Shown here piece by piece: positions 1,186 through 25,931 of a stretch of DNA of 26,225 bases (the first letter of the stretch is position 1; the number at the start of each line of letters is the position of its first letter). The position numbers and the translations under genes were made by a program. The DNA lies in NCBI GenBank assembly GCA_016839765.1, contig JAEOTP010000056.1, forward strand, positions 1 through 26,225, read 5' to 3'. Source of the stretch: Promethearchaeota archaeon. GTDB lineage: Archaea > Asgardarchaeota > Lokiarchaeia > Sigyniarchaeales > SOKP01. The notes below the pieces were generated by a model that worked only from the letters and a program-made list of their open reading frames with translations, searched no databases and was not told the DNA's origin.

Positions 1186-2360
1186 TATTTTGCCACCTCC
1201 CTGATCACATTTAAAATATCGTCTGGATGGTGAAATTCACAAACTTTGGGTATCTTTATAACAGGAGTACCAAGTTTAGTTACTCTTTCAACTTGTTCTG
1301 CAATATATCCAGTATAATTTAATTCAGGAACGATTACAGCCCTTGCATCTTTAACCACTTCTTTAACCTGTTTATCAGGAAATGGCCAAACAGTAACCAA
1401 TCTAAAAATACCTACTTTGATATTTTCTTTTCTTGCTATATCGACAGCTCTATAGCTTGAGCGAACTGGTAAGCCATAAGCAATAATAACAATATCAGCA
1501 TCATCTAATTTGTATTTTTCAGTAATACAAATTTTATCTTTATTTTTATTTATTTTGTCCATAATTGCTTTCATAAATTGCATAGGTTTAGGCGTTGGTA
1601 AACCTTCATAATTATGAGGTTGATGCAGAAATAACACTGGACAATAATCAGTACCCATTTGAGGAGGTCTAGGGATAACAAATTCTCCTGTAATATCATC
1701 CTTATAGGTAAATTTCTTGACAAATTGATCAGGCGGGGGCAATTCTCTGTCAATAACTCTTTTTCGAATTTCTTCTTTAGGAGGAATATTAACAATCTCA
1801 TGTAAATGACCTAAATATGCATCCGATAAAATATAAACAGGACACCGGTATGTTTCAGCATAATTAAAGGCTGTTATTGTTAAATCAAAAAGTTCTTGAC
1901 AAGTCATTGGTGCAAGTGCTATTACCTGAAATTCTCCATTTCCTGAAAAGCGTACTAAACCTATATCATTATGATGAGGTTCTGTAACAAAACCGGTTCC
2001 AGGACCATTTCTTTGGACATCACAAAAAACAAACGGAACTTCCAGATTAGCAGCCATAGATATTGTTTCTACCATCAATGATAAGCCAGGTCCTGACGTA
2101 GCAGTCATTGATTTTGCCCCTACCAAAGAGGCTCCTATTACTGAGTTAATAGAAGCTAGTTCATCTTCCATTTGCATGCAAATTCCTCCAACTTGGGGTA
2201 ACCTAACTGCTAAATGTTCAATCACCTCAGTACTGGGAGTTATTGGATATCCACCAAAAAATTTTAATCCTGATGACAGTGCTCCTTCTGCCATCGCAAC
2301 ATTTCCCATCATTAAATGCCTTCCTTCTGGCAAAAATCTTTTTCCATTTCCAATATTCAT
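1185..2360 (-). CDS. korA: 2-oxoacid:ferredoxin oxidoreductase alpha subunit
   Basis: GNVAMAEGA, GYPITPSTE, QMEDE, TATSGPG and QRNGPGTG. No fused gamma domain; one-base overlap with the beta gene. Confidence 0.92.
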   Translation of the reverse strand: MNIGNGKRFLPEGRHLMMGNVAMAEGALSSGLKFFGGYPITPSTEVIEHLAVRLPQVGGICMQMEDELASINSVIGASLVGAKSMTATSGPGLSLMVETISMAANLEVPFVFCDVQRNGPGTGFVTEPHHNDIGLVRFSGNGEFQVIALAPMTCQELFDLTITAFNYAETYRCPVYILSDAYLGHLHEIVNIPPKEEIRKRVIDRELPPPDQFVKKFTYKDDITGEFVIPRPPQMGTDYCPVLFLHQPHNYEGLPTPKPMQFMKAIMDKINKNKDKICITEKYKLDDADIVIIAYGLPVRSSYRAVDIARKENIKVGIFRLVTVWPFPDKQVKEVVKDARAVIVPELNYTGYIAEQVERVTKLGTPVIKIPKVCEFHHPDDILNVIREVAK

Positions 2361-3546: not shown

Positions 3547-4843
3547 AAAAGGAGAGGAATTATATAATAAAATTAAAGACAAATTGGTAGAATTGCAGAG
3601 TGAAAATTCCGCTTATGCTCAATTTAATGAAATATGGAAAATGGCATGCGCTATCAAATATAAATCATACGATTTGAGATATCTTTATGAAGATACGAGT
3701 AGAGAGTTTGTTGACGAGTATAGAGAGCATTTAATTAAAATGAAGAAAGATTTTGTTGAAAACATAGATGAATATGTAGATAAATGCATTAAAAGAATGG
3801 AAAGTACAAATCACTTCAGAGTATATCTTGCAAAAACTAATCAAGAAGCTCAAAGAATTTTCATGGAAGAATTAGGAGATAATAAAGTTATATACAAGTC
3901 AAAGTCTTTAGAGGCAAAAGATGCGGGTATAATGGATACGCTTAAAAAAAATAATATAACTATTAAAGAAACTGACTTAGGAGATGTATTCTGCCAATTA
4001 TTAGAATATGATTATCCAAGTTTTACTTTAGGTCCTGGAATACAATTTACTCCTGAAGAGATTGTCGCTAAAATAAAAGAAAAGTATGGAGTTGAAGTAG
4101 AACCCGAAGCTGAAGCAATTGTTAATTATTTTAGAAATACATATCGTAAAGAATTACTTAAAGATGTGAAGGTGTCATTAACTTCTGCTAATGCAATATC
4201 AGCACAAGATGGATCAATTGTTTTAGTAGAAAATGAGGGAAATATTAGTATTATTACAAGAGCAACAGAAAAGCATATAGTAGTAGCTGGGATTCAACGA
4301 ATAGTCCCAAGCGTTTTTGATGCCCTACTATGCGCAAAAATACAAGAAAGAATCATAAATGTAGATGGTGCTTATATTAGTTTTATTTCATCTCCTTCAA
4401 ATACTTCAGATGTTCAAGGACACCGTGTATTCGGAATGTACGGAGCTAAAGAAGTGGTTATAATTCTTGTGGATGATTGGCGTATGAAAGCTGTAAAAGA
4501 AAACCTTTTTTATAAGGATATGTTGAAATGTATCGGTTGTAAAAGCTGTGATCTTGTATGTACTGCCTCTAGAGCATTTGGAAATATTTATGCTTCTAAA
4601 TATGGAATTGGTGCTATAAATATTGTTCGTGATTATATTCATAATGGTATTGAAGCAGCAGTCGCAGATGGTTTGTTCTTATGTACTGGATGTGAAAATT
4701 GTACTAACTGGTGTCCAACAGGAGTAGATTTAGCAGAAATGATAAGAGAATTGAAAAGAATAGCGGTTGATAAAGACTTGTGTCCTCCACCATTAAAGGA
4801 ATACAAAGAAAAAATTCTTAAGGATAAAAATCCTTTTAAATAA
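3539..4843 (+). CDS. LutB/LldF-like LUD-domain Fe-S protein
   Basis: KSKS, ETDLG, SANAISAQDGSIVLVENEGN, HIVVAGI and SSPSNTSD, plus two ferredoxin motifs (CIGCKSCDLVC, CTGCENCTNWCP). Confidence 0.85.
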   Translation: MSEKGEELYNKIKDKLVELQSENSAYAQFNEIWKMACAIKYKSYDLRYLYEDTSREFVDEYREHLIKMKKDFVENIDEYVDKCIKRMESTNHFRVYLAKTNQEAQRIFMEELGDNKVIYKSKSLEAKDAGIMDTLKKNNITIKETDLGDVFCQLLEYDYPSFTLGPGIQFTPEEIVAKIKEKYGVEVEPEAEAIVNYFRNTYRKELLKDVKVSLTSANAISAQDGSIVLVENEGNISIITRATEKHIVVAGIQRIVPSVFDALLCAKIQERIINVDGAYISFISSPSNTSDVQGHRVFGMYGAKEVVIILVDDWRMKAVKENLFYKDMLKCIGCKSCDLVCTASRAFGNIYASKYGIGAINIVRDYIHNGIEAAVADGLFLCTGCENCTNWCPTGVDLAEMIRELKRIAVDKDLCPPPLKEYKEKILKDKNPFK

Positions 4844-4930: not shown

Positions 4931-6118
4931 TTATTGGGAATGAAAAATCTGGAATGGGGCAGCTGAACATCTCCAAATTGCTATATCTTCAAAACCTAAT
5001 ATTTCTGCGTATGTTTTCTCACCGTTACAAGTCTCCTTTAACTTTTGCCATAATATTTTAGCAATATCGTTAACTTCTTTATTTTCAGTAATTATTTTAC
5101 TAGCATCTACATCAATATTGCTTGCCATCCAATCACATGTTTTTGGATTACCACAGATTTTAATAACAGGTGCTACAGGATTACCGCAGGGACTACCTCG
5201 CCCAGTTGTCATTATTATAACTTGAGCACCTGCAGCTGCTAATCCCGTCATAGATTCAACATCCAAACCAGGTTCTATCATTAGCCATAATCCTTTTCCT
5301 TTAGGAGCTTCAGAATACTCTAAAATTCCGTTAATTGAAGCCTTTCCTGCTTTTGCAATGGTTCCTAAAGATTTTTCTTCGATTGTGGTTAATCCTCCTT
5401 CAATATTACCAGGTGTTGGTTGTATACCTCTAAAATCTATTCCAAGTTTCATAGTATTTTCTAAAAACATATTAAGTGTTGAACTTATTTTCTCAGCAAC
5501 TTTCTCGTCAACAGCTCTTTTTATTAGCAGGTGTTCAGTTCCAATCCATTCAGTAAATTCAGGTAAAATTGAAGTTCCGCCTAATTCAATTATCTTATCT
5601 GAAACAATTCCCACGGCGGGGTTTGCTGAAATCCCAGAAATCGAATCTGAACCTCCACATTCCAAACCTAATACTAGATTTGAGAAATCAAAAGGTTCTC
5701 TTTTTGATTCTTTAGCTTCTTCAGCCATCTGTTTTCCAATTTTAACCCCTTTTTCTATAGCTGCTTTTGAACCGCCCTGGACATCTTGTAAATTGAAAAA
5801 ATCTACAGGTTTTTTTGCTCTTTTGATATTTTTAGCAATTAACTTACTGCTTAGATTTTCGCATCCTAAACCTATAATAATAGCACCAAAAATATTTGGA
5901 TTACTGCCTAATCCAACTAAGGTTCTCTGAGTGTAAGAAAAATCTGGTCCAAATTGTCCACAACCAAGGGGGTGAGTTATAGCGACAGCATTTTCAATGT
6001 AATTAGCAATTTGCTGCGCAACACGATTAACACAAACTACTGAAGATATAACTACAATTTTATTTCGAATACCGACTTTGCCTTTTGGTCTTTCAAAACC
6101 TAAAAATTCTTCGCTCAT
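4931..6118 (-). CDS. UxaA-family hydro-lyase large subunit (altronate/galactarate dehydratase or sulfolactate sulfo-lyase SuyB-like)
   Basis: GFERPKGKVGIRN, SVVC, HPLGCGQ, GLGCE, LECGGSD, TPGNIEGGLTTIEEKSLG and TTGRGSP. Confidence 0.9.
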   Translation of the reverse strand: MSEEFLGFERPKGKVGIRNKIVVISSVVCVNRVAQQIANYIENAVAITHPLGCGQFGPDFSYTQRTLVGLGSNPNIFGAIIIGLGCENLSSKLIAKNIKRAKKPVDFFNLQDVQGGSKAAIEKGVKIGKQMAEEAKESKREPFDFSNLVLGLECGGSDSISGISANPAVGIVSDKIIELGGTSILPEFTEWIGTEHLLIKRAVDEKVAEKISSTLNMFLENTMKLGIDFRGIQPTPGNIEGGLTTIEEKSLGTIAKAGKASINGILEYSEAPKGKGLWLMIEPGLDVESMTGLAAAGAQVIIMTTGRGSPCGNPVAPVIKICGNPKTCDWMASNIDVDASKIITENKEVNDIAKILWQKLKETCNGEKTYAEILGFEDIAIWRCSAAPFQIFHSQ

Positions 6119-16955: not shown

Positions 16956-18932
16956 ATGGTAGAAACAAAGAGTAAAGAGATAAAAACTACTGACGAAATT
17001 AGAATTTTTGTAGCGATTTGCCAATGAGGTATTAACGTTGCTGAAATAATTGACACAAAAGCGTTATCTGAATATTCTAAAAAATTACCTAATGTTGTGG
17101 ATGCTTTAGATTATATCTCCTTATGTACTGAGCCCGGAGCAGAATTTATTAAAGAGAAAATGCTTGATGTCAATGCTAATAGACTAGTTGTTGCATCTTG
17201 CACCCCCAAGACTCATGAACCTGTTTTTAAAAGTGTATTAGAATCAATGGATTTAGATTCCTCATATTTAGAGTTTGTGAATATACGTGAACATTCGAGT
17301 TTTGTACATAGGAATGATAAAGAAGGCGCACAGAGAACAGCTGAAGATGCTGTTAAATCAGGAGTTGCAAGAGCAACAGTATTAGAAAAGATTTTAGTGA
17401 AAGAGGTGGATATTACTAAGAAGGCTTTGATTATTGGCGGTGGTGTTGCAGGGTTATCTGCTGGCATAGATCTTGCAGAGGAGGGATTTGAAGTATATTT
17501 AGTAGAAAAAAGCCCCACGATTGGAGGAAAAATGGCAATGTTAGATCGAACATTCCCCACGGACGATTGCAGTATATGAATATTGGGACCAGTCATGTTA
17601 GAATCAGCACGAACTCCTGGAATGAATATTTATACTTATAGTGAAATTGAAGATGTCTCTGGATTTGTAGGAAACTTTGAAGTAAAAATTCGCAAAAAAG
17701 CTAGGTATGTAAACAATGATTGTAATGGTTGCGGTGCCTGTTATGAGGTGTGTCCCGCATACGGGTATGATGAATTCAATGAAGGAATGAATCCTAGGAA
17801 GGCAATTTATGCATCGTTTACGCAAGCTGTTCCCTCAATAGCACAAATCGATATGACTAAATGTATTAAGTGTGGATTATGCGAGAGTGCTTGCGAATTA
17901 AATGCCATAGATTTTGATCAAGAAGAGGAAATAATTGAGATTGAAGTCGGTTCAATAATAGTAGCAACTGGTTGGGATGAATATGAACCTGAAACGGGAT
18001 ATTTAGGCTACAATGTCTATCCTAACGTTATAACACAATTGAAACTTGAAAGAATACTAGCTCCTAATGGACCAACTTTTGGCCATCTTGTGAGACCCTC
18101 TGACGGAAAGAAACCTAAAAATGTCTTATTTATACAATGCGTTGGTTCAAGGGATCTAACTAAGCAAACTTACTGTAGTGCGGGAGTATGCTGTATGATA
18201 TCTATTAAAAATACAAAACTAATAAAGCAACATCTACCTGATGTAGATATAACTGTGGCATATATGGATATCAGGGCTGCTGGAAAAGATTATGAGGAAT
18301 ATTTTACAGCTTCAAGGAAAGAAGGTATAAAGTATGTAAGAACTAATATCTCAAAAATTCATGAGGATCCTGAAACTCATAATCTTAAAGTAATTTTACA
18401 AAATACGCTTAGTACTGCAGGATTAAAAGAATTTGAGTATGATCTGATTGTGCTTTCATGTGCAATGGTACCTCCAAAAGGCATTGAAAAAATTGAAAGA
18501 ATATTGAAGTTAGAAACAAGTCAAGATGGATTTTTCAAGGAATTTCATTCAAGATTAAACCCAATTGATACAAAAATCCCCGGAATAGCCCTTGCTGGAG
18601 TAAGTCAAGGACCTAAGTCTATTGCTGAATCTATTGCTCAGGGAAGAGCTGCTGCTTCATCTTTAGCAAGACTAATGAGTAAAGATAAATATCGAATTCT
18701 CCTAATAAGAGCAAATGTGGATAAAGAATTATGCGCGAAATGTGGGTTATGTGAATTAAATTGTCCCTATGATGCTATTAAAATAGAATCTGATGGCGCT
18801 GAAGTAAATGAAATATTGTGTAGAGGATGTGGTTCATGTTTGGCCAATTGTCCTTCTGAAGCGATTACTTTAATGTACTATCGCGAACCCCAATACGAAA
18901 AACAAATAGATGCTATTCTTGAGGAGATATAA
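16956..18932 (+). CDS. hdrA: Heterodisulfide reductase subunit A, selenoprotein (Sec24, Sec208; 658 aa)
   Basis: Single frame from ATG 16956. TGA 17025-17027 lies in IFVAICQ-U-GINV (consensus ICHCG) and TGA 17577-17579 in FPTDDCSI-U-ILGP (consensus DCSxCIL). Also GGGVAG FAD motif, four CxxCxxCxxxC motifs, IQCVGSRD, CSAGVCC and GPKSI. Confidence 0.95.
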
Positions 18933-18945
18933 AGAGGCGAGCTAA

Positions 18946-19404
18946 ATGACAACTGAAAATAATATTAAGATTCTAGCATTTATGTGCTGGAAATGAGGTT
19001 ATGGAGCGGGAGATATGGCTGGTACTATACGAGCACAATATCCCGCAACAATCAGACCAATTAGAATAAATTGTACTGGTAGAGTAACGCCTAGTCTTAT
19101 GATGCGAGCAATTGGAAAGGGTGCCGATGGAGTACTCGTAGCTGGTTGATATGAAGGGGAATGTGATTATGAAACAGGTAATCTAGTAGCAGCAAAAAAT
19201 GTGGAATTTACTAAAGAAGTGTTAAAAGCAACAGGAATATCCCCTGAAAGAATACAAATGTTTCATTGTAGTGCTGCCGAAGGTCAGAGATTTCAAGAAG
19301 AAGTAACTCGCGTCTCAGAAATAATTGAAAATCTGGGGAAAAATCCATTGAAAGATTCTTTAAGGTCAGAAGTTAATAAAAAAGAAAAAAAACCGAATGA
19401 ATGA
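18946..19404 (+). CDS. mvhD: MvhD/VhuD [2Fe-2S] hydrogenase delta subunit, selenoprotein (Sec17, Sec68; 152 aa)
   Basis: From ATG 18946: ILAFMCWK-U-GYGAGDMAG...IRINCTGRV...GADGVLVAG-U-YEGECDY...ERIQMFHCSAAEG. TGA at 18994-18996 and 19147-19149 occupy conserved Cys positions. Confidence 0.95.
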
Positions 19405-19436
19405 ATCTTGTAAGGTAAATCTTTGTTACAAGATGA
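19401..19436 (+). promoter_or_regulatory. Eukaryote-like SECIS element (AUGA-N12-AA-N16-GA)
   Basis: AUGA 19401-19404; perfect 9-bp stem ATCTTGTAA (19405-19413)/TTACAAGAT (19426-19434); apical AAA 19417-19419; GA 19435-19436. Lies directly 3' of two Sec genes. Confidence 0.75.
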
Positions 19437-19463
19437 CGAACCATAAAGCAATGGTTTCGGGAA
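19433..19463 (+). promoter_or_regulatory. Second SECIS-like hairpin overlapping the first
   Basis: AUGA 19433-19436; stem CGAACCAT/ATGGTTTCG with one bulge; loop AAAGCA; GGAA 19460-19463. Confidence 0.55.
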
Positions 19464-19541
19464 AAAAAATTTTAAAAAACATAACTATTTATTTTTAATT
19501 TCCTAAGTTTGAAATCCTATTAATAATATAATAAAAGGGGT

Positions 19542-19556
19542 GTAAAGCTTTTTAAA
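19542..19556 (+). promoter_or_regulatory. Putative archaeal BRE/TATA promoter
   Basis: GTAAAGC followed by TTTTTAAA, about 85 nt upstream of the 19642 gene. The AT-rich background limits certainty. Confidence 0.3.
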
Positions 19557-19641
19557 CCCGTAATTCTAGATTAATCCTAATTTAATTTCTTATGAAATAA
19601 AATTAAAATAAAATAAAATTTAAAAAAAAAAGTGAAAAAAG

Positions 19642-20298
19642 ATGGGTGAAGCTCCTAAAGGAGAAATTTCAGCATCAAAAGTGATTGCCTTCATTGGAAT
19701 GCTATTCACAGTTTATTTTGCTATGATTTTTTTTTATAACGTTACTCTTTTCACAGGAATATTTGTACTTTGGGGAATAATCTGTCTATTGATTGCATTC
19801 TTAATCTTTATTACTTTAGGACTAATTAGTTTTGGACCTTTAAGCAAAATAACTTATCAATGGTGGATACTACTTATCTTTGGAGCAGTTTTAGTGTTAA
19901 TCGCATACTTTTATATAAGCTATTATTTACCTGCTATTCTAATTTTGATGGCAGCCGTCATTGAACTGATAATGCAAAAGAAACCTTATAAAGCTTCCAA
20001 AATGGTTGCAATCGTAGGCGCTGGTTTTGCAGGGTATGAATGTGTAGTATTGATGTTATCTGGAATTACTTTATATATTGTAAATGCTGTTTTCGGTTTG
20101 ATTCTAATCATTATTCTACTTCTGCTTATTTTTGAAGTAGTAGATTTCAAAATCTTTAATTATTCTTGGTGGGTTGTTTTACTAATAGGATTCGTTATCT
20201 TTACTTGGATATCACCATATGCTGCCGGTTATCCAGTCCTTGGTTATGGAGGAATGATCATTTTAATAGCCTTTATACTCATATTAATGGCATTCTAA
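19642..20298 (+). CDS. Hypothetical polytopic membrane protein with internal duplication (about 2x4 TM)
   Basis: Highly hydrophobic; repeated motifs ASKVIAFIG/ASKMVAIVG and YQWWILLIFG/YSWWVVLLIG. Confidence 0.8.
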   Translation: MGEAPKGEISASKVIAFIGMLFTVYFAMIFFYNVTLFTGIFVLWGIICLLIAFLIFITLGLISFGPLSKITYQWWILLIFGAVLVLIAYFYISYYLPAILILMAAVIELIMQKKPYKASKMVAIVGAGFAGYECVVLMLSGITLYIVNAVFGLILIIILLLLIFEVVDFKIFNYSWWVVLLIGFVIFTWISPYAAGYPVLGYGGMIILIAFILILMAF

Positions 20299-23021: not shown

Positions 23022-25931
23022 TTACACCATCCAACCAAAAAAGAAAACTTTTCGGCCTATTCCTATGGAAAGTCCATTCTTAGTAATGGTTAACTTAAAC
23101 CACCCAAGTTCATTCTCTCCTTTATAGCATTCCCTTCCTTTGGAAATTTTGTAATAAACAATTTCCCATGATACACGCACATCATTAATTTTGAAATCTA
23201 TTACATTTTCATTAATGTATATAGCAATTTCTCCGTATATTTTCATATTATTTATGTATAATTTACCCGTTCCCAGAAGCATTCTACGACTCATTAACCA
23301 ATCATATGTGGGTTTGCTTACTTGTAATTCAGAATATTCACCAGCATAGACATCTAGATGACCATAATTCCATAAATATATTCCTGTAAAATCAGGATTT
23401 GTAATACCATGTCTAAAGGGACCCCAATAAGCAAGCCCAAATAGTTCACTCGTAAAAGCAAGCAATGGAACATCAATCTCGCTATAATGATCATCAAAGT
23501 CGTATGTGACGTAAGGACAATTATCCCAATTAGAAATAGCACTACTTTCAAGACCTAATCTTGAAGGCCAGTACCTATCAAACGTAGCATCTATGTGTAT
23601 CATTACGCTTGGATCTCCATATCCCCCAGTAATATTACTCACGACACCTTCTCCCCATGCCATATATATCATAAATGCAGCCCATTCAGAGATATTAGCC
23701 CATGGTAATCCTGTAAGAGGATTAATAGCAGGAGAAACTGGATTTCCAGGTGGAAATTCTGGAGGGGCACCAGGGTTCTCATCAGCGTATTTTAATGCGA
23801 ATATAGATCCTGGAGAACTACCAACTTCAAGATACCAATTCCCTGTCGCTATCATTCCAGCTATCATAGCAGGTAAGTCGAAAGTATTTGTGACTAACTC
23901 GGGATATTTTGTCCCGGTTCCACCATCTCTTAATATAATCCCTTTTAGATCTTCTTGCCAATACATTGAAGCATAGTTCATTGCTGCACTTCCACCAAAA
24001 CTCTCACCTGCCAGATAGATTCGCTTGACTCCTGATATTATTTTTGCTAGTTCCACAGCTTCCTTTATATCACTAATCCATGTGTCCCAGCCCCATTCTG
24101 CCATGAAAGCAAGATCCTCTGGTTCTAAGTATAGATTTACAAAATGGGTTCTATAATCGATAGCATATACATCAAAACCTCTATTAGCAAGATAATATGC
24201 ATGACTATGTTTCTCATCCATAGTCCACTTATCCTCAGGTGGATTTGAGATTAGTTGCTCACCATTGCTCCATGTTCCAGGTAAAATAAAAACGACTCCT
24301 TTTGGTTCAATACCCGCTTTCACAACTCTGCGCAAACCAATTTTGTCATAAGGGCCATATGGAGGCCTTTTCATTTCCCAAACATACTCCTGCAAATCAG
24401 GATAAAGCTTAACATCTCTACCGTCATGTAATTTAGTCCATTTCAATAAAGAAGGAGAAGTTTTGTCAAGATTCTTAATAATATCAATGAACATATTAGT
24501 TGTAGGTACTAGCTCCTCTTTTGCTATTGTATCAAGGGTATCATACTGAGTGAACTGGGGAGCATTATGTGAAATAAAATTAATAGTAGGAATTCCAATT
24601 GCATGGAATTTTCCTCCCTCCCCTGGAACAGCAAAAGCTCCTGGTAAACAAGACGTCCGTTCCATATCATTTTTTACAATTGCTTCAGATGCGTAGGACA
24701 AGAGGTATTCATTTGCTGATAGAAAGGGTCCTGATAGGAACATTCCTCTTGGAGCAACTAGTCCAGTTTCAAAAAATTCTCCACCCTCTATCTTAATTTG
24801 CTTACCAATCATCTCAATATTTATAGCACATGCCACTTTAGGCAATGAGTTGTATACATGACAATTATACTCATTCCAAGATGCCTTTTTGCCAAAATGA
24901 CTTCCGAAACAATAGAATAATAATGTTTTTTCTCTATGATGTTTAGGAATTCGAGAGAAATATTTAGCTAAAGCCATAACTATCGAGGTCCCTGAAGCTT
25001 CATTAGTTGCCCAACCATCATGATGTGTTAAAATAACAATTATATCGTCTGTCTCTCCGGGTAAAGTTCCATAAACGTTATGAGTAAATCCAGAGCTACT
25101 TTCCCCTGTTAAAATTATAGTTGCCTCCTTTGGACCAGCTTCTAATAGTTCTTTTAGGTGATTACCCTCATTTGGACTCACAGTCAGTCCAGGGAGAGAT
25201 CCATCACCATACCAATGTAGGTACTGATTAACGTGGTCAGCCATACAAGTCAAAATACCAACATAACCTACAGCTCCATAAGTATTGGCTAAACTATAAG
25301 ATTCATCCAAGTTGTCTAAAGGCCAATTTTCGGTAGCCATTGGATCATCAGCAAAAGTATCATCTGGATCCCATTCAAACAAAATAAAAGGTTTAAGAAA
25401 TGCTCTAGGCCATGGAGCGCCAATAATGTCTACAAGAACGATCTTACCTTCAATCCCAGCAGTTTCGTTCGTAACATGGAATTCATCATCTGACCCCGTC
25501 CCTACATAAACCATCTCAGCCTTGATACCTTCTGAGTCAGTGAAATTTGCATAACGTAAGAAATAACAAGGTATATCTTCATCTTCATCTTCTAAATGCA
25601 TTTTTAATTTCCATTGTTCTGGTTCACATAAATCTGCAGGTACAGGTTCCATGTGTGTATCTTTTAGTCCAAACTCCTTAAATTTTTGGTAAATATAACT
25701 CGCTCCTTTTAATTCTGCATCTGTCCCAGGCATTCGGTAGCCATATTTACCATCAATGCCTATTTGATAAATATCCTCAGCCCATCCAAAAATTTGATCC
25801 TCAGAAGGTACTTTGGGTTTACACCATCTGCAATATCCATGATCATAAGAAACCACCATTGTTGGAAGGATACAAAACCCTAACACTAAAAGGAGAACCA
25901 GTGTATAATTCTTAAGATTTTTAGTTTTCAT
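23022..25931 (-). CDS. Secreted multidomain hydrolase: signal peptide, M28-like peptidase with PA domain, alpha/beta-hydrolase and small C-terminal domain
   Basis: N-terminal K-rich plus hydrophobic signal. M28/PA features: RMPGT, AEMVYVGTG, IEGKIVLV, HNVYGTLPG, THHDG. Hydrolase features: FILPG, RGFDVYAIDYR, GESFGG, YGHLD. Confidence 0.82.
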   Translation of the reverse strand: MKTKNLKNYTLVLLLVLGFCILPTMVVSYDHGYCRWCKPKVPSEDQIFGWAEDIYQIGIDGKYGYRMPGTDAELKGASYIYQKFKEFGLKDTHMEPVPADLCEPEQWKLKMHLEDEDEDIPCYFLRYANFTDSEGIKAEMVYVGTGSDDEFHVTNETAGIEGKIVLVDIIGAPWPRAFLKPFILFEWDPDDTFADDPMATENWPLDNLDESYSLANTYGAVGYVGILTCMADHVNQYLHWYGDGSLPGLTVSPNEGNHLKELLEAGPKEATIILTGESSSGFTHNVYGTLPGETDDIIVILTHHDGWATNEASGTSIVMALAKYFSRIPKHHREKTLLFYCFGSHFGKKASWNEYNCHVYNSLPKVACAINIEMIGKQIKIEGGEFFETGLVAPRGMFLSGPFLSANEYLLSYASEAIVKNDMERTSCLPGAFAVPGEGGKFHAIGIPTINFISHNAPQFTQYDTLDTIAKEELVPTTNMFIDIIKNLDKTSPSLLKWTKLHDGRDVKLYPDLQEYVWEMKRPPYGPYDKIGLRRVVKAGIEPKGVVFILPGTWSNGEQLISNPPEDKWTMDEKHSHAYYLANRGFDVYAIDYRTHFVNLYLEPEDLAFMAEWGWDTWISDIKEAVELAKIISGVKRIYLAGESFGGSAAMNYASMYWQEDLKGIILRDGGTGTKYPELVTNTFDLPAMIAGMIATGNWYLEVGSSPGSIFALKYADENPGAPPEFPPGNPVSPAINPLTGLPWANISEWAAFMIYMAWGEGVVSNITGGYGDPSVMIHIDATFDRYWPSRLGLESSAISNWDNCPYVTYDFDDHYSEIDVPLLAFTSELFGLAYWGPFRHGITNPDFTGIYLWNYGHLDVYAGEYSELQVSKPTYDWLMSRRMLLGTGKLYINNMKIYGEIAIYINENVIDFKINDVRVSWEIVYYKISKGRECYKGENELGWFKLTITKNGLSIGIGRKVFFFGWMV

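Follow-up and report, generated by a model that had tools for sequence, protein, structure and literature searches.

The SECIS elements of eukaryotes are composed of helix I, an internal loop, an AUGA/GA quartet, helix II and an apical AAR motif. The lokiSECIS described by Mariotti et al. (2016, PMC4989117) consists of an AUGA, a 9-bp stem, an 11-nt loop and a GA, and in Lokiarchaeota a single eukaryote-like SECIS is located 3' of vhuD and is common to hdrA and vhuD. A type I eSECIS-like model made up of the core, an upper stem and an apical loop has been reported by Huang et al. (2024, PMC11227280), as has a G[U/G]AAA variant of the apical loop. That study also mentions an internal loop and a lower stem, and lists family-specific lower-stem pairs only for frhA and selD. 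Asgard archaea have so far yielded no SBP2 (PMC4989117, PMC9723677).

We have analyzed one such element behind an hdrA-mvhD gene pair and compared it with elements from Asgard mvhD loci and from other selenoprotein genes. Very probably, nucleotides 19393-19460 constitute one composite SECIS, in which the known Asgard eukaryote-like arm stands on a compact three-way junction together with a helix I and an accessory hairpin. Relative to the published lokiSECIS and eSECIS-like elements, this adds a hairpin in the 3' side of the internal loop, the three-way junction itself and an invariant G...C pair on either side of the core. The junction is widely conserved and apparently has not been described as such in the text of the SECIS literature. 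The texts of PMC4989117, PMC11227280 and a 2026 review mention neither a loop hairpin nor a three-way junction, and the invariant G...C pair is likewise absent from the published descriptions in the texts searched; the supplement text of PMC11227280 does not contain the terms "lower stem", "hairpin" or "junction"; and a literature search that combined SECIS, three-way junction and archaea returned nothing relevant.

The hdrA-mvhD locus and the predicted fold of its 3' end

The window, meaning the whole stretch of 26,225 nucleotides of Promethearchaeota archaeon DNA that was analyzed, contains an hdrA gene whose product has Fer4, FAD/NAD-binding and Pyr_redox_2 domains (Pfam), followed after an intergenic gap of 13 nt by an mvhD gene whose product matches Pfam PF02662 FlpD (E = 2.9e-43). 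There are four in-frame UGA codons over the two genes, and the UGA stop codon of mvhD (19402-04) falls within the AUGA of the SECIS. This layout matches the published Lokiarchaeota arrangement (PMC4989117). The features under discussion, in window coordinates, are as follows:

16956..18932, + strand: hdrA, with in-frame UGA (Sec) codons at 17025-27 and 17577-79; open when TGA is read as U
18946..19404, + strand: mvhD/vhuD, with in-frame UGA (Sec) codons at 18994-96 and 19147-49
19393..19396, + strand: CCGA, 5' strand of helix I, pairs with 19457-60; A19397 can give a fifth pair
19399, + strand: invariant G, putative closing pair of a proposed kink-turn C stem with C19437
19400..19402, + strand: proposed 3-nt kink-turn bulge A-A-U as read from the sequence, the AU being part of AUGA
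19401-04, + strand: AUGA of hairpin 1, immediately 5' of the stem
19403..19404, + strand: GA of AUGA, which supplies the 5' side of the tandem sheared G·A pairs and is a defining feature of the lokiSECIS (PMC4989117); invariant (78/78)
19405-13 with 19426-34, + strand: SECIS stem of hairpin 1, a perfect 9 bp
within 19405..19434, + strand: apical loop GGUAAAUCUUUG, 12 nt, with AAA at 19417-19 and terminal G at 19425
19435..19437, + strand: GA (19435-36, immediately 3' of the stem), 3' half of the core, then C
19437-44 and 19451-59, + strand: hairpin 2 strands as initially annotated, CGAACCAU and AUGGUUUCG, which pair with one bulged U
19440..19455, + strand: hairpin 2 as accessory third helix, ACCAU/AUGGU with loop AAAGCA (19445-50)
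19457..19460, + strand: UCGG, 3' strand of helix I, pairs with 19393-96; U19456 can give a fifth pair

The initial annotation had described two interlocked SECIS-like hairpins here, and all motifs that it listed between 19393 and 19463 are present. Its assignment of hairpin 1 as a SECIS is borne out by the AUGA/GA, the 9-bp stem and the A-rich loop with its terminal G. Hairpin 1 resembles the lokiSECIS and type I eSECIS-like elements in its AUGA and GA/AA, its 9-bp stem and its A-rich loop, which is about 11 nt long and has G as its last base. It also resembles the lokiSECIS in its location just 3' of vhuD/mvhD, in being common with hdrA and in that the stop codon may be the UGA of AUGA. We find the AUGA/GA, a covarying 9-bp stem, the loop and an upstream gene with in-frame UGA codons, all of which characterize the lokiSECIS. 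A second AUGA (19433-36) and a trailing GA (19461-62) also exist in the window sequence, and CCGAA (19393-97) is complementary to UUCGG (19456-60). G19460 separates the hairpin 2 stem from GA 19461-62, so a second core would lack the direct stem-GA geometry of the first.

Folding of 19380-19480 yields a minimum free energy of -18.3 kcal/mol (z = -3.36), with none of 200 shuffled sequences folding as well, and the three-way junction is both the minimum free energy and the centroid structure. Partition-function folding of the same segment, the check proposed in the initial annotation, favours the junction. For the closing helix (19393-96 with 19457-60) the pair probabilities are 0.63-0.88, while both the hairpin 1 stem and the core of hairpin 2 (19440-44 with 19451-55) reach 0.92-1.0; the extra pairs initially drawn at the base of hairpin 2 have 0.04-0.11. 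Formation of a second core would need the stem pair A19405-U19434, with a probability of 0.92, to be open. Searching the whole window with the Rfam covariance models, among them that of the eukaryotic SECIS, gave no match to any family at this site at E up to 10. C/D-box sRNAs are expected in archaea, and elsewhere in the window there are weak matches to SNORD65 (5872-5932, + strand, 20.4 bits) and SNORD21 (25086-25176, - strand, 22.5 bits), both far below gathering score and probably due to chance.

Conservation of the three-way junction

To place the element in a comparative context we scanned species-representative genomes with MvhD, which provided 80 Asgard loci. Every complete locus has the layout CCGA-N4-5-AUGA-stem-loop-stem-GA-C-NN-hairpin-(U)UCGG, with a 9-bp SECIS stem and an 11-nt apical loop. 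Column counts were taken from a MAFFT alignment (A1) of the 78 distinct elements. The covariation analysis of Asgard mvhD 3' regions that had been suggested for this locus shows that pairing is kept in all three helices. For helix I, 99.7% of cells are paired, with one double change (GCGA/UCGC) and two G·U pairs; for the SECIS stem 90% are paired and 8 of 9 pairs show double changes; and for hairpin 2 88.6% are paired, its fourth pair being A-U in 41 elements, U-A in 21 and C-G in 3. When partner columns are slid by 1-3 positions, pairing falls to 30-50%. The loop AAA and terminal G are invariant columns, as is the UGA of AUGA, which includes the 5' GA at 19403-04 (78/78). On the 3' side of the core the A and the following C are invariant and the G is at least 90% conserved.

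Conservation of CCGA might have been explained by protein-coding constraint, which is ruled out by its position relative to mvhD. In 36 elements mvhD ends with a UAG located 4 nt before AUGA, in 22 with a UAA 5' of CCGA and in 16 with a UGA inside an (AUGA)AUGA run. CCGA consequently occurs in three codon phases or in the untranslated region, and therefore the constraint acts on RNA rather than on protein. Mutual information over all A1 column pairs indicated no pseudoknot or loop-loop contact; the top pairs are those of the proposed helices, and the leftover high-scoring pairs 24-68 and 11-68 resemble clade effects. Helix I is near-invariant in sequence among mvhD orthologs, with its covariation coming mostly from paralogs and other families. 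One variant core was seen at locus L132 (about 1201-1277, minus strand) in another genome of the window's family. There the SECIS behind an hdrA-like gene reads AUGC in place of AUGA and keeps the junction and hairpin 2; the AUGC could reflect a sequencing error, degeneration of the core or a rare variant.

The genome from which the window derives contains eight candidate SECIS sites, seven identified by a covariance model of the junction (R1) and an eighth by a regular-expression scan. They are located behind the mvhD of the window, two mvhD paralogs, an hdrA-like gene (Fer4/Pyr_redox_2), a VhuU-like ORF, an ORF with a GCUU motif, a small membrane ORF with GGGUPC and an ORF without assignment. 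The VhuU-like (DCULSCAAH) and PrxL-like (GCUU) labels are based on motif only and are without a Pfam match. At all eight sites, a hairpin of at least 4 bp starts 2-5 nt past the core, as compared with 36 of 594 decoys (AUGA-stem-GA sites from the same genome). A hairpin together with a closing helix of at least 4 bp is present at 7 of 8 sites and at 21 of the 594 decoys. The closing helices in this genome include UCUGAAA/UUUCAGA, UUAUG/CAUAA, CUCCC/GGGGG and UUGGCUU/AAGCCAA, with GCUAGA/UCUAGC a further sequence among the groups. The published frhA and selD lower-stem pairs (PMC11227280) match the helices behind the VhuU-like ORF and the C64 ORF.

Two of these sites have features of their own. 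The element at C64:41239-41310 (L166:1340-1411) has a GGAG/CUCC closing helix, an AAAGG/CCUUU hairpin and a 12-nt loop, and sits behind a 323-aa frame that has in-frame TGA codons and no Pfam match. The ORF 5' of this element was considered as selD, but with no Pfam match it is left unassigned. At C12:~3550-3900 (L094:1225-1575), a complete SECIS of the junction type stands behind an ORF of about 95 aa that carries a GGGUPC motif and a single predicted membrane helix. The same type of small ORF, with the motif GGPSULC and a junction-type SECIS behind it, occurs at L140 in another genome of the window's family. These GGGUPC/GGPSULC ORFs have no Pfam match and may represent a selenoprotein family outside the published Asgard list.

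Beyond this genome, R1 was run on 25 genomes of the window's family and had 2-8 matches in every one. Sec-mvhD is present in at least five other families of the phylum, and we examined the DNA behind 18 Sec-mvhD genes from them. With strict filters R1 missed the elements in three of five other families; these were recovered from the DNA 3' of Sec-mvhD and with a broader model (R2). Under the rule set used for the own genome, elements from other genomes have the hairpin in 37 of 37 cases and the hairpin plus closing helix in 33 of 37; a clear closing helix is absent under the spacing rules in 4 of these 37 and in 1 of the 8 own-genome sites. Closing helices in other families read AGCU/AGCU, GUUAC/GUAAC, CUGCUGC/GCGGCAG, CCGCCA/UGGCGG and UCGAUGG/CCAUCGA, and their hairpins include CCCC/GGGG, UCCUC/GAGGA, ACUCU/AGAGU and AUCC/GGAU. 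Because helix sequences differ completely between groups, all 18 pairs, including all four of helix I, show double changes in two further alignments, A2 (29 sequences) and A3 (19 sequences), which are both model-fitted and so lean towards the structure. In these alignments 91-92% of cells are paired versus 60-63% when shuffled and 35-52% when slid, with the shuffle statistics overstating support since related sequences are not independent. Over all comparisons, the three helices keep both their pairing and their spacing, with covariation, among orthologs and paralogs, behind other selenoprotein genes and in six Asgard families.

Hairpin 2 deserves separate description. The hairpin given in the initial annotation is real and proves to be conserved, and all five of its pairs covary across families; in one ORF group the strands are swapped (AAGGG/CCCUU). 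It begins 3 nt after the core GA in the window and 2-5 nt after it across gene and taxonomic families. Among mvhD elements its ACC/GGU is nearly invariant. Nearly every loop has a GC with a purine 3' of it (AAAGCA, UAGCU, GCA, GCG, UUGCG, GUAAGCG, UGCAC, GGCAA), and no covarying partner for this loop was found elsewhere in the element in A1. A euryarchaeal type of SECIS, in which a GAA_A bulge lies between two stems, was also considered for hairpin 2 and was rejected, given that GAA 19438-40 faces UUU with no A and that these bases are not conserved. The closure of both hairpins by CCGA/UCGG into a three-way junction, also foreseen in the initial annotation, is upheld by the near-complete pairing, the cross-family covariation and the pair probabilities given above.

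The features that would make hairpin 2 a second SECIS or kink-turn core fare differently. In A1 columns 48-51 AUGA is found in only 26 of 78 elements, the others having AAGA, GGGA, AGGA, GAGA, ACGA and so on, and a GA directly 3' of the closing helix is found in 4 of 78. A conserved AUGA/GA around hairpin 2, which the initial annotation had named as decisive, is therefore absent. The extended form of hairpin 2 (C52-G78, G53-C77, A54-U76, A55-U75) is 70.5% paired with no double changes, G53-C77 pairs in 19 of 78 and fails in 59 of 78, and helix I is preferred. Lastly, hairpin 2 has a conserved stem of 5 bp and a loop of 3-9 nt without an A-run or terminal G, as opposed to the 9-bp stem, A-rich loop of about 11 nt and terminal loop G that are hallmarks of the lokiSECIS.

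A kink-turn sequence signature at the junction

The 5' stem-loop of U4 snRNA contains an "AAUGA/GA" loop, and the 3b·3n position of a kink-turn decides between ion- and protein-dependent folding. In a standard kink-turn, a pair of the C stem is followed by a bulge of 3 nt and then by tandem G·A pairs, and the 3b·3n position is variable (PMC5061560, PMC10573300). Each of these parts can be recognized in the Asgard element as G13-C52, an N-A-U bulge, GA/GA and a variable 19·49. G19399 and C19437 (A1 columns 13 and 52) are G and C in 78 of 78 elements, and exactly three bases, N-A-U, lie between the invariant G and the GA; columns 13-18 read GAAUGA in 62 of 78, GGAUGA in 10, GUAUGA in 4 and GAGUGA in 2. 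One position outward, columns 12 and 53 can pair in 52 of 78 elements, as A-U, U-A, U-G or G-C. The first stem pair beside the G·A pairs (19405/19434, columns 19/49) is non-standard in 31 of 78 elements and in 10 of 19 in A3. This pair and its equivalents occupy the 3b·3n position and are non-Watson-Crick in about 40% of elements. G19399-C19437 cannot covary since it is invariant, and ViennaRNA assigns it a probability of 0.01 with an energy model that does not cover kink-turns. From this pattern we infer a standard kink-turn made up of G19399-C19437, the A-A-U bulge and the tandem G·A pairs, with a proposed C stem that is 1-3 bp long and opens straight into the junction.

The "G-AAUGA...GA-C" of this element resembles the U4 loop. 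As in other standard (5+2) kink-turns of the L7Ae family (U4, box C/D RUGAUGA...CUGA), a Watson-Crick pair is followed by a 3-nt bulge ending in AU and by GA opposite GA. It differs from these in that the proposed C stem is just 1-3 bp before the junction. There is also a likeness to the k-junctions described by Wang et al. (2014, PMC4005666) and Li et al. (2023, PMC10573300), which share tandem G·A pairs and, inserted in the non-bulged strand between these pairs and the closing helix, an additional helix. Hairpin 2 is such a third helix, placed opposite the bulge between GA-C and the 3' strand of helix I. k-junctions are further characterized by coaxial C and T helices and by an extra bulged nucleotide between G1b and A2b; in the Asgard element no nucleotide lies between G19403 and A19404, and the invariant G-C pair and 3-nt bulge would allow a standard kink-turn that has a short C stem of its own above the junction. 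Since L7Ae does not fold k-junctions (PMC10573300), simple recognition by L7Ae would be doubtful if this were a true k-junction. Two loci from another family of the phylum (L148 and L149) have a CAG-AUGA...GA-UG core instead of G-N-AUGA...GA-C; this variant would retain a 3-nt bulge (G-A-U) and a C-A/U-G C stem as a shifted kink-turn pattern.

Among archaeal elements, the VhuD SECIS of Methanococcales and Methanopyrus is similar in having an AUGA opposite a GAC/AAC and a short "extra stem" below (PMC4989117). In contrast to the element studied here it carries euryarchaeal GAA_A features, and no accessory hairpin has been reported between its GAC and the extra stem (PMC4989117). With the eukaryotic SECIS the Asgard element shares the order of its parts, CCGA/UCGG being equivalent to helix I and both the core and the apical adenines matching. 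It differs from the eukaryotic SECIS in that helix II is shorter and that a structured hairpin occupies the 3' side of the internal loop.

A probable composite SECIS and its alternatives

One alternative holds that the junction is a thermodynamic clamp alone, the equivalent of a eukaryotic helix I plus a structured internal loop, in which helix I and hairpin 2 are selected for stability and are read by no factor. The free variation of helix sequences between gene families with retention of pairing is in keeping with this view, as is the fact that these helices are the sole G+C-rich segments in a very AT-rich tail. However, conservation of the GC(R) motif in the hairpin 2 loop across families, and of ACC/GGU among mvhD elements, exceeds what stability alone would need, and we consider a pure clamp rather unlikely.

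A second alternative is that hairpin 2 is an independent 3'-end element, either a terminator or an mRNA-stability hairpin, that merely adjoins the SECIS. It does lie at the operon end, with an A8-U4 tract (19462-73) downstream, but a scan for bacterial-type terminators across 19300-19700 gave zero sites, and the sequence 3' of hairpin 2 is GGG followed by A8 rather than a U-run. Moreover, hairpin 2 is enclosed by a helix whose 5' strand is upstream of the SECIS, it keeps its spacing and GC-containing loop across gene and taxonomic families, and a hairpin of this kind occurs at just 6% of decoy sites. An independent 3'-end element is accordingly very improbable.

The least credible reading, originally proposed for this site, is that two SECIS-like kink-turn cores share GA 19435-36 and either alternate as a switch or act in tandem for different UGA codons; the AUGA, stem and GA that flank hairpin 2 in the window and the four UGA codons that need serving speak for it, but the second core and the switch are unsupported because the AUGA/GA is not conserved, G53-C77 fails and the SECIS hallmarks are missing, the alternative pairs are rare in the ensemble, G19460 intervenes and Loki hdrA-vhuD pairs are reported with a single SECIS (PMC4989117), so that the comparison brings this reading close to refuted.

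For the composite SECIS, the arm would direct UGA-to-selenocysteine recoding at the four in-frame UGAs of hdrA and mvhD. Since the proposed C stem is only 1-3 bp, we suggest that stacking on helix I or hairpin 2 lengthens it and fixes its register, and that the junction may set the geometry in which the kink-turn and the A-rich apical loop are presented. The mvhD stop codon is 0-12 nt from the core, and for this reason the 5' strand would be unwound by each terminating ribosome. The junction could keep the core folded in an extremely AT-rich mRNA tail and permit refolding once terminating ribosomes have unwound helix I. Additionally, the GC-containing loop of hairpin 2 may be a second recognition surface for a factor that replaces SBP2. 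These roles of hairpin 2 and helix I are suggested by comparative data.

A more far-reaching proposal, to which we would give somewhat less than an even chance, is that Asgard SECIS elements are a distinct class in which a kink-turn hairpin stands on a three-way junction. Sec insertion would then depend on the accessory hairpin with its GC loop, which would be either part of the site for an SBP2 substitute or a scaffold that serves four to six UGAs up to 2.4 kb upstream, and the internal loop of eukaryotic SECIS elements would be a remnant of this arrangement.

The composite SECIS bears on how Asgard archaea read eukaryote-like SECIS elements without SBP2 and on how multiple distant UGA codons in two genes are recoded by one element. 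The junction also makes for a better search model, as illustrated by the number of sites that its covariance model detects per genome throughout the window's family, and the comparison removes a riboswitch-like reading in which SECIS cores alternate. The loop of hairpin 2 and the junction would be concrete RNA surfaces for factor binding, and the junction is a possible structural intermediate towards the helix I and internal loop of the eukaryotic SECIS.
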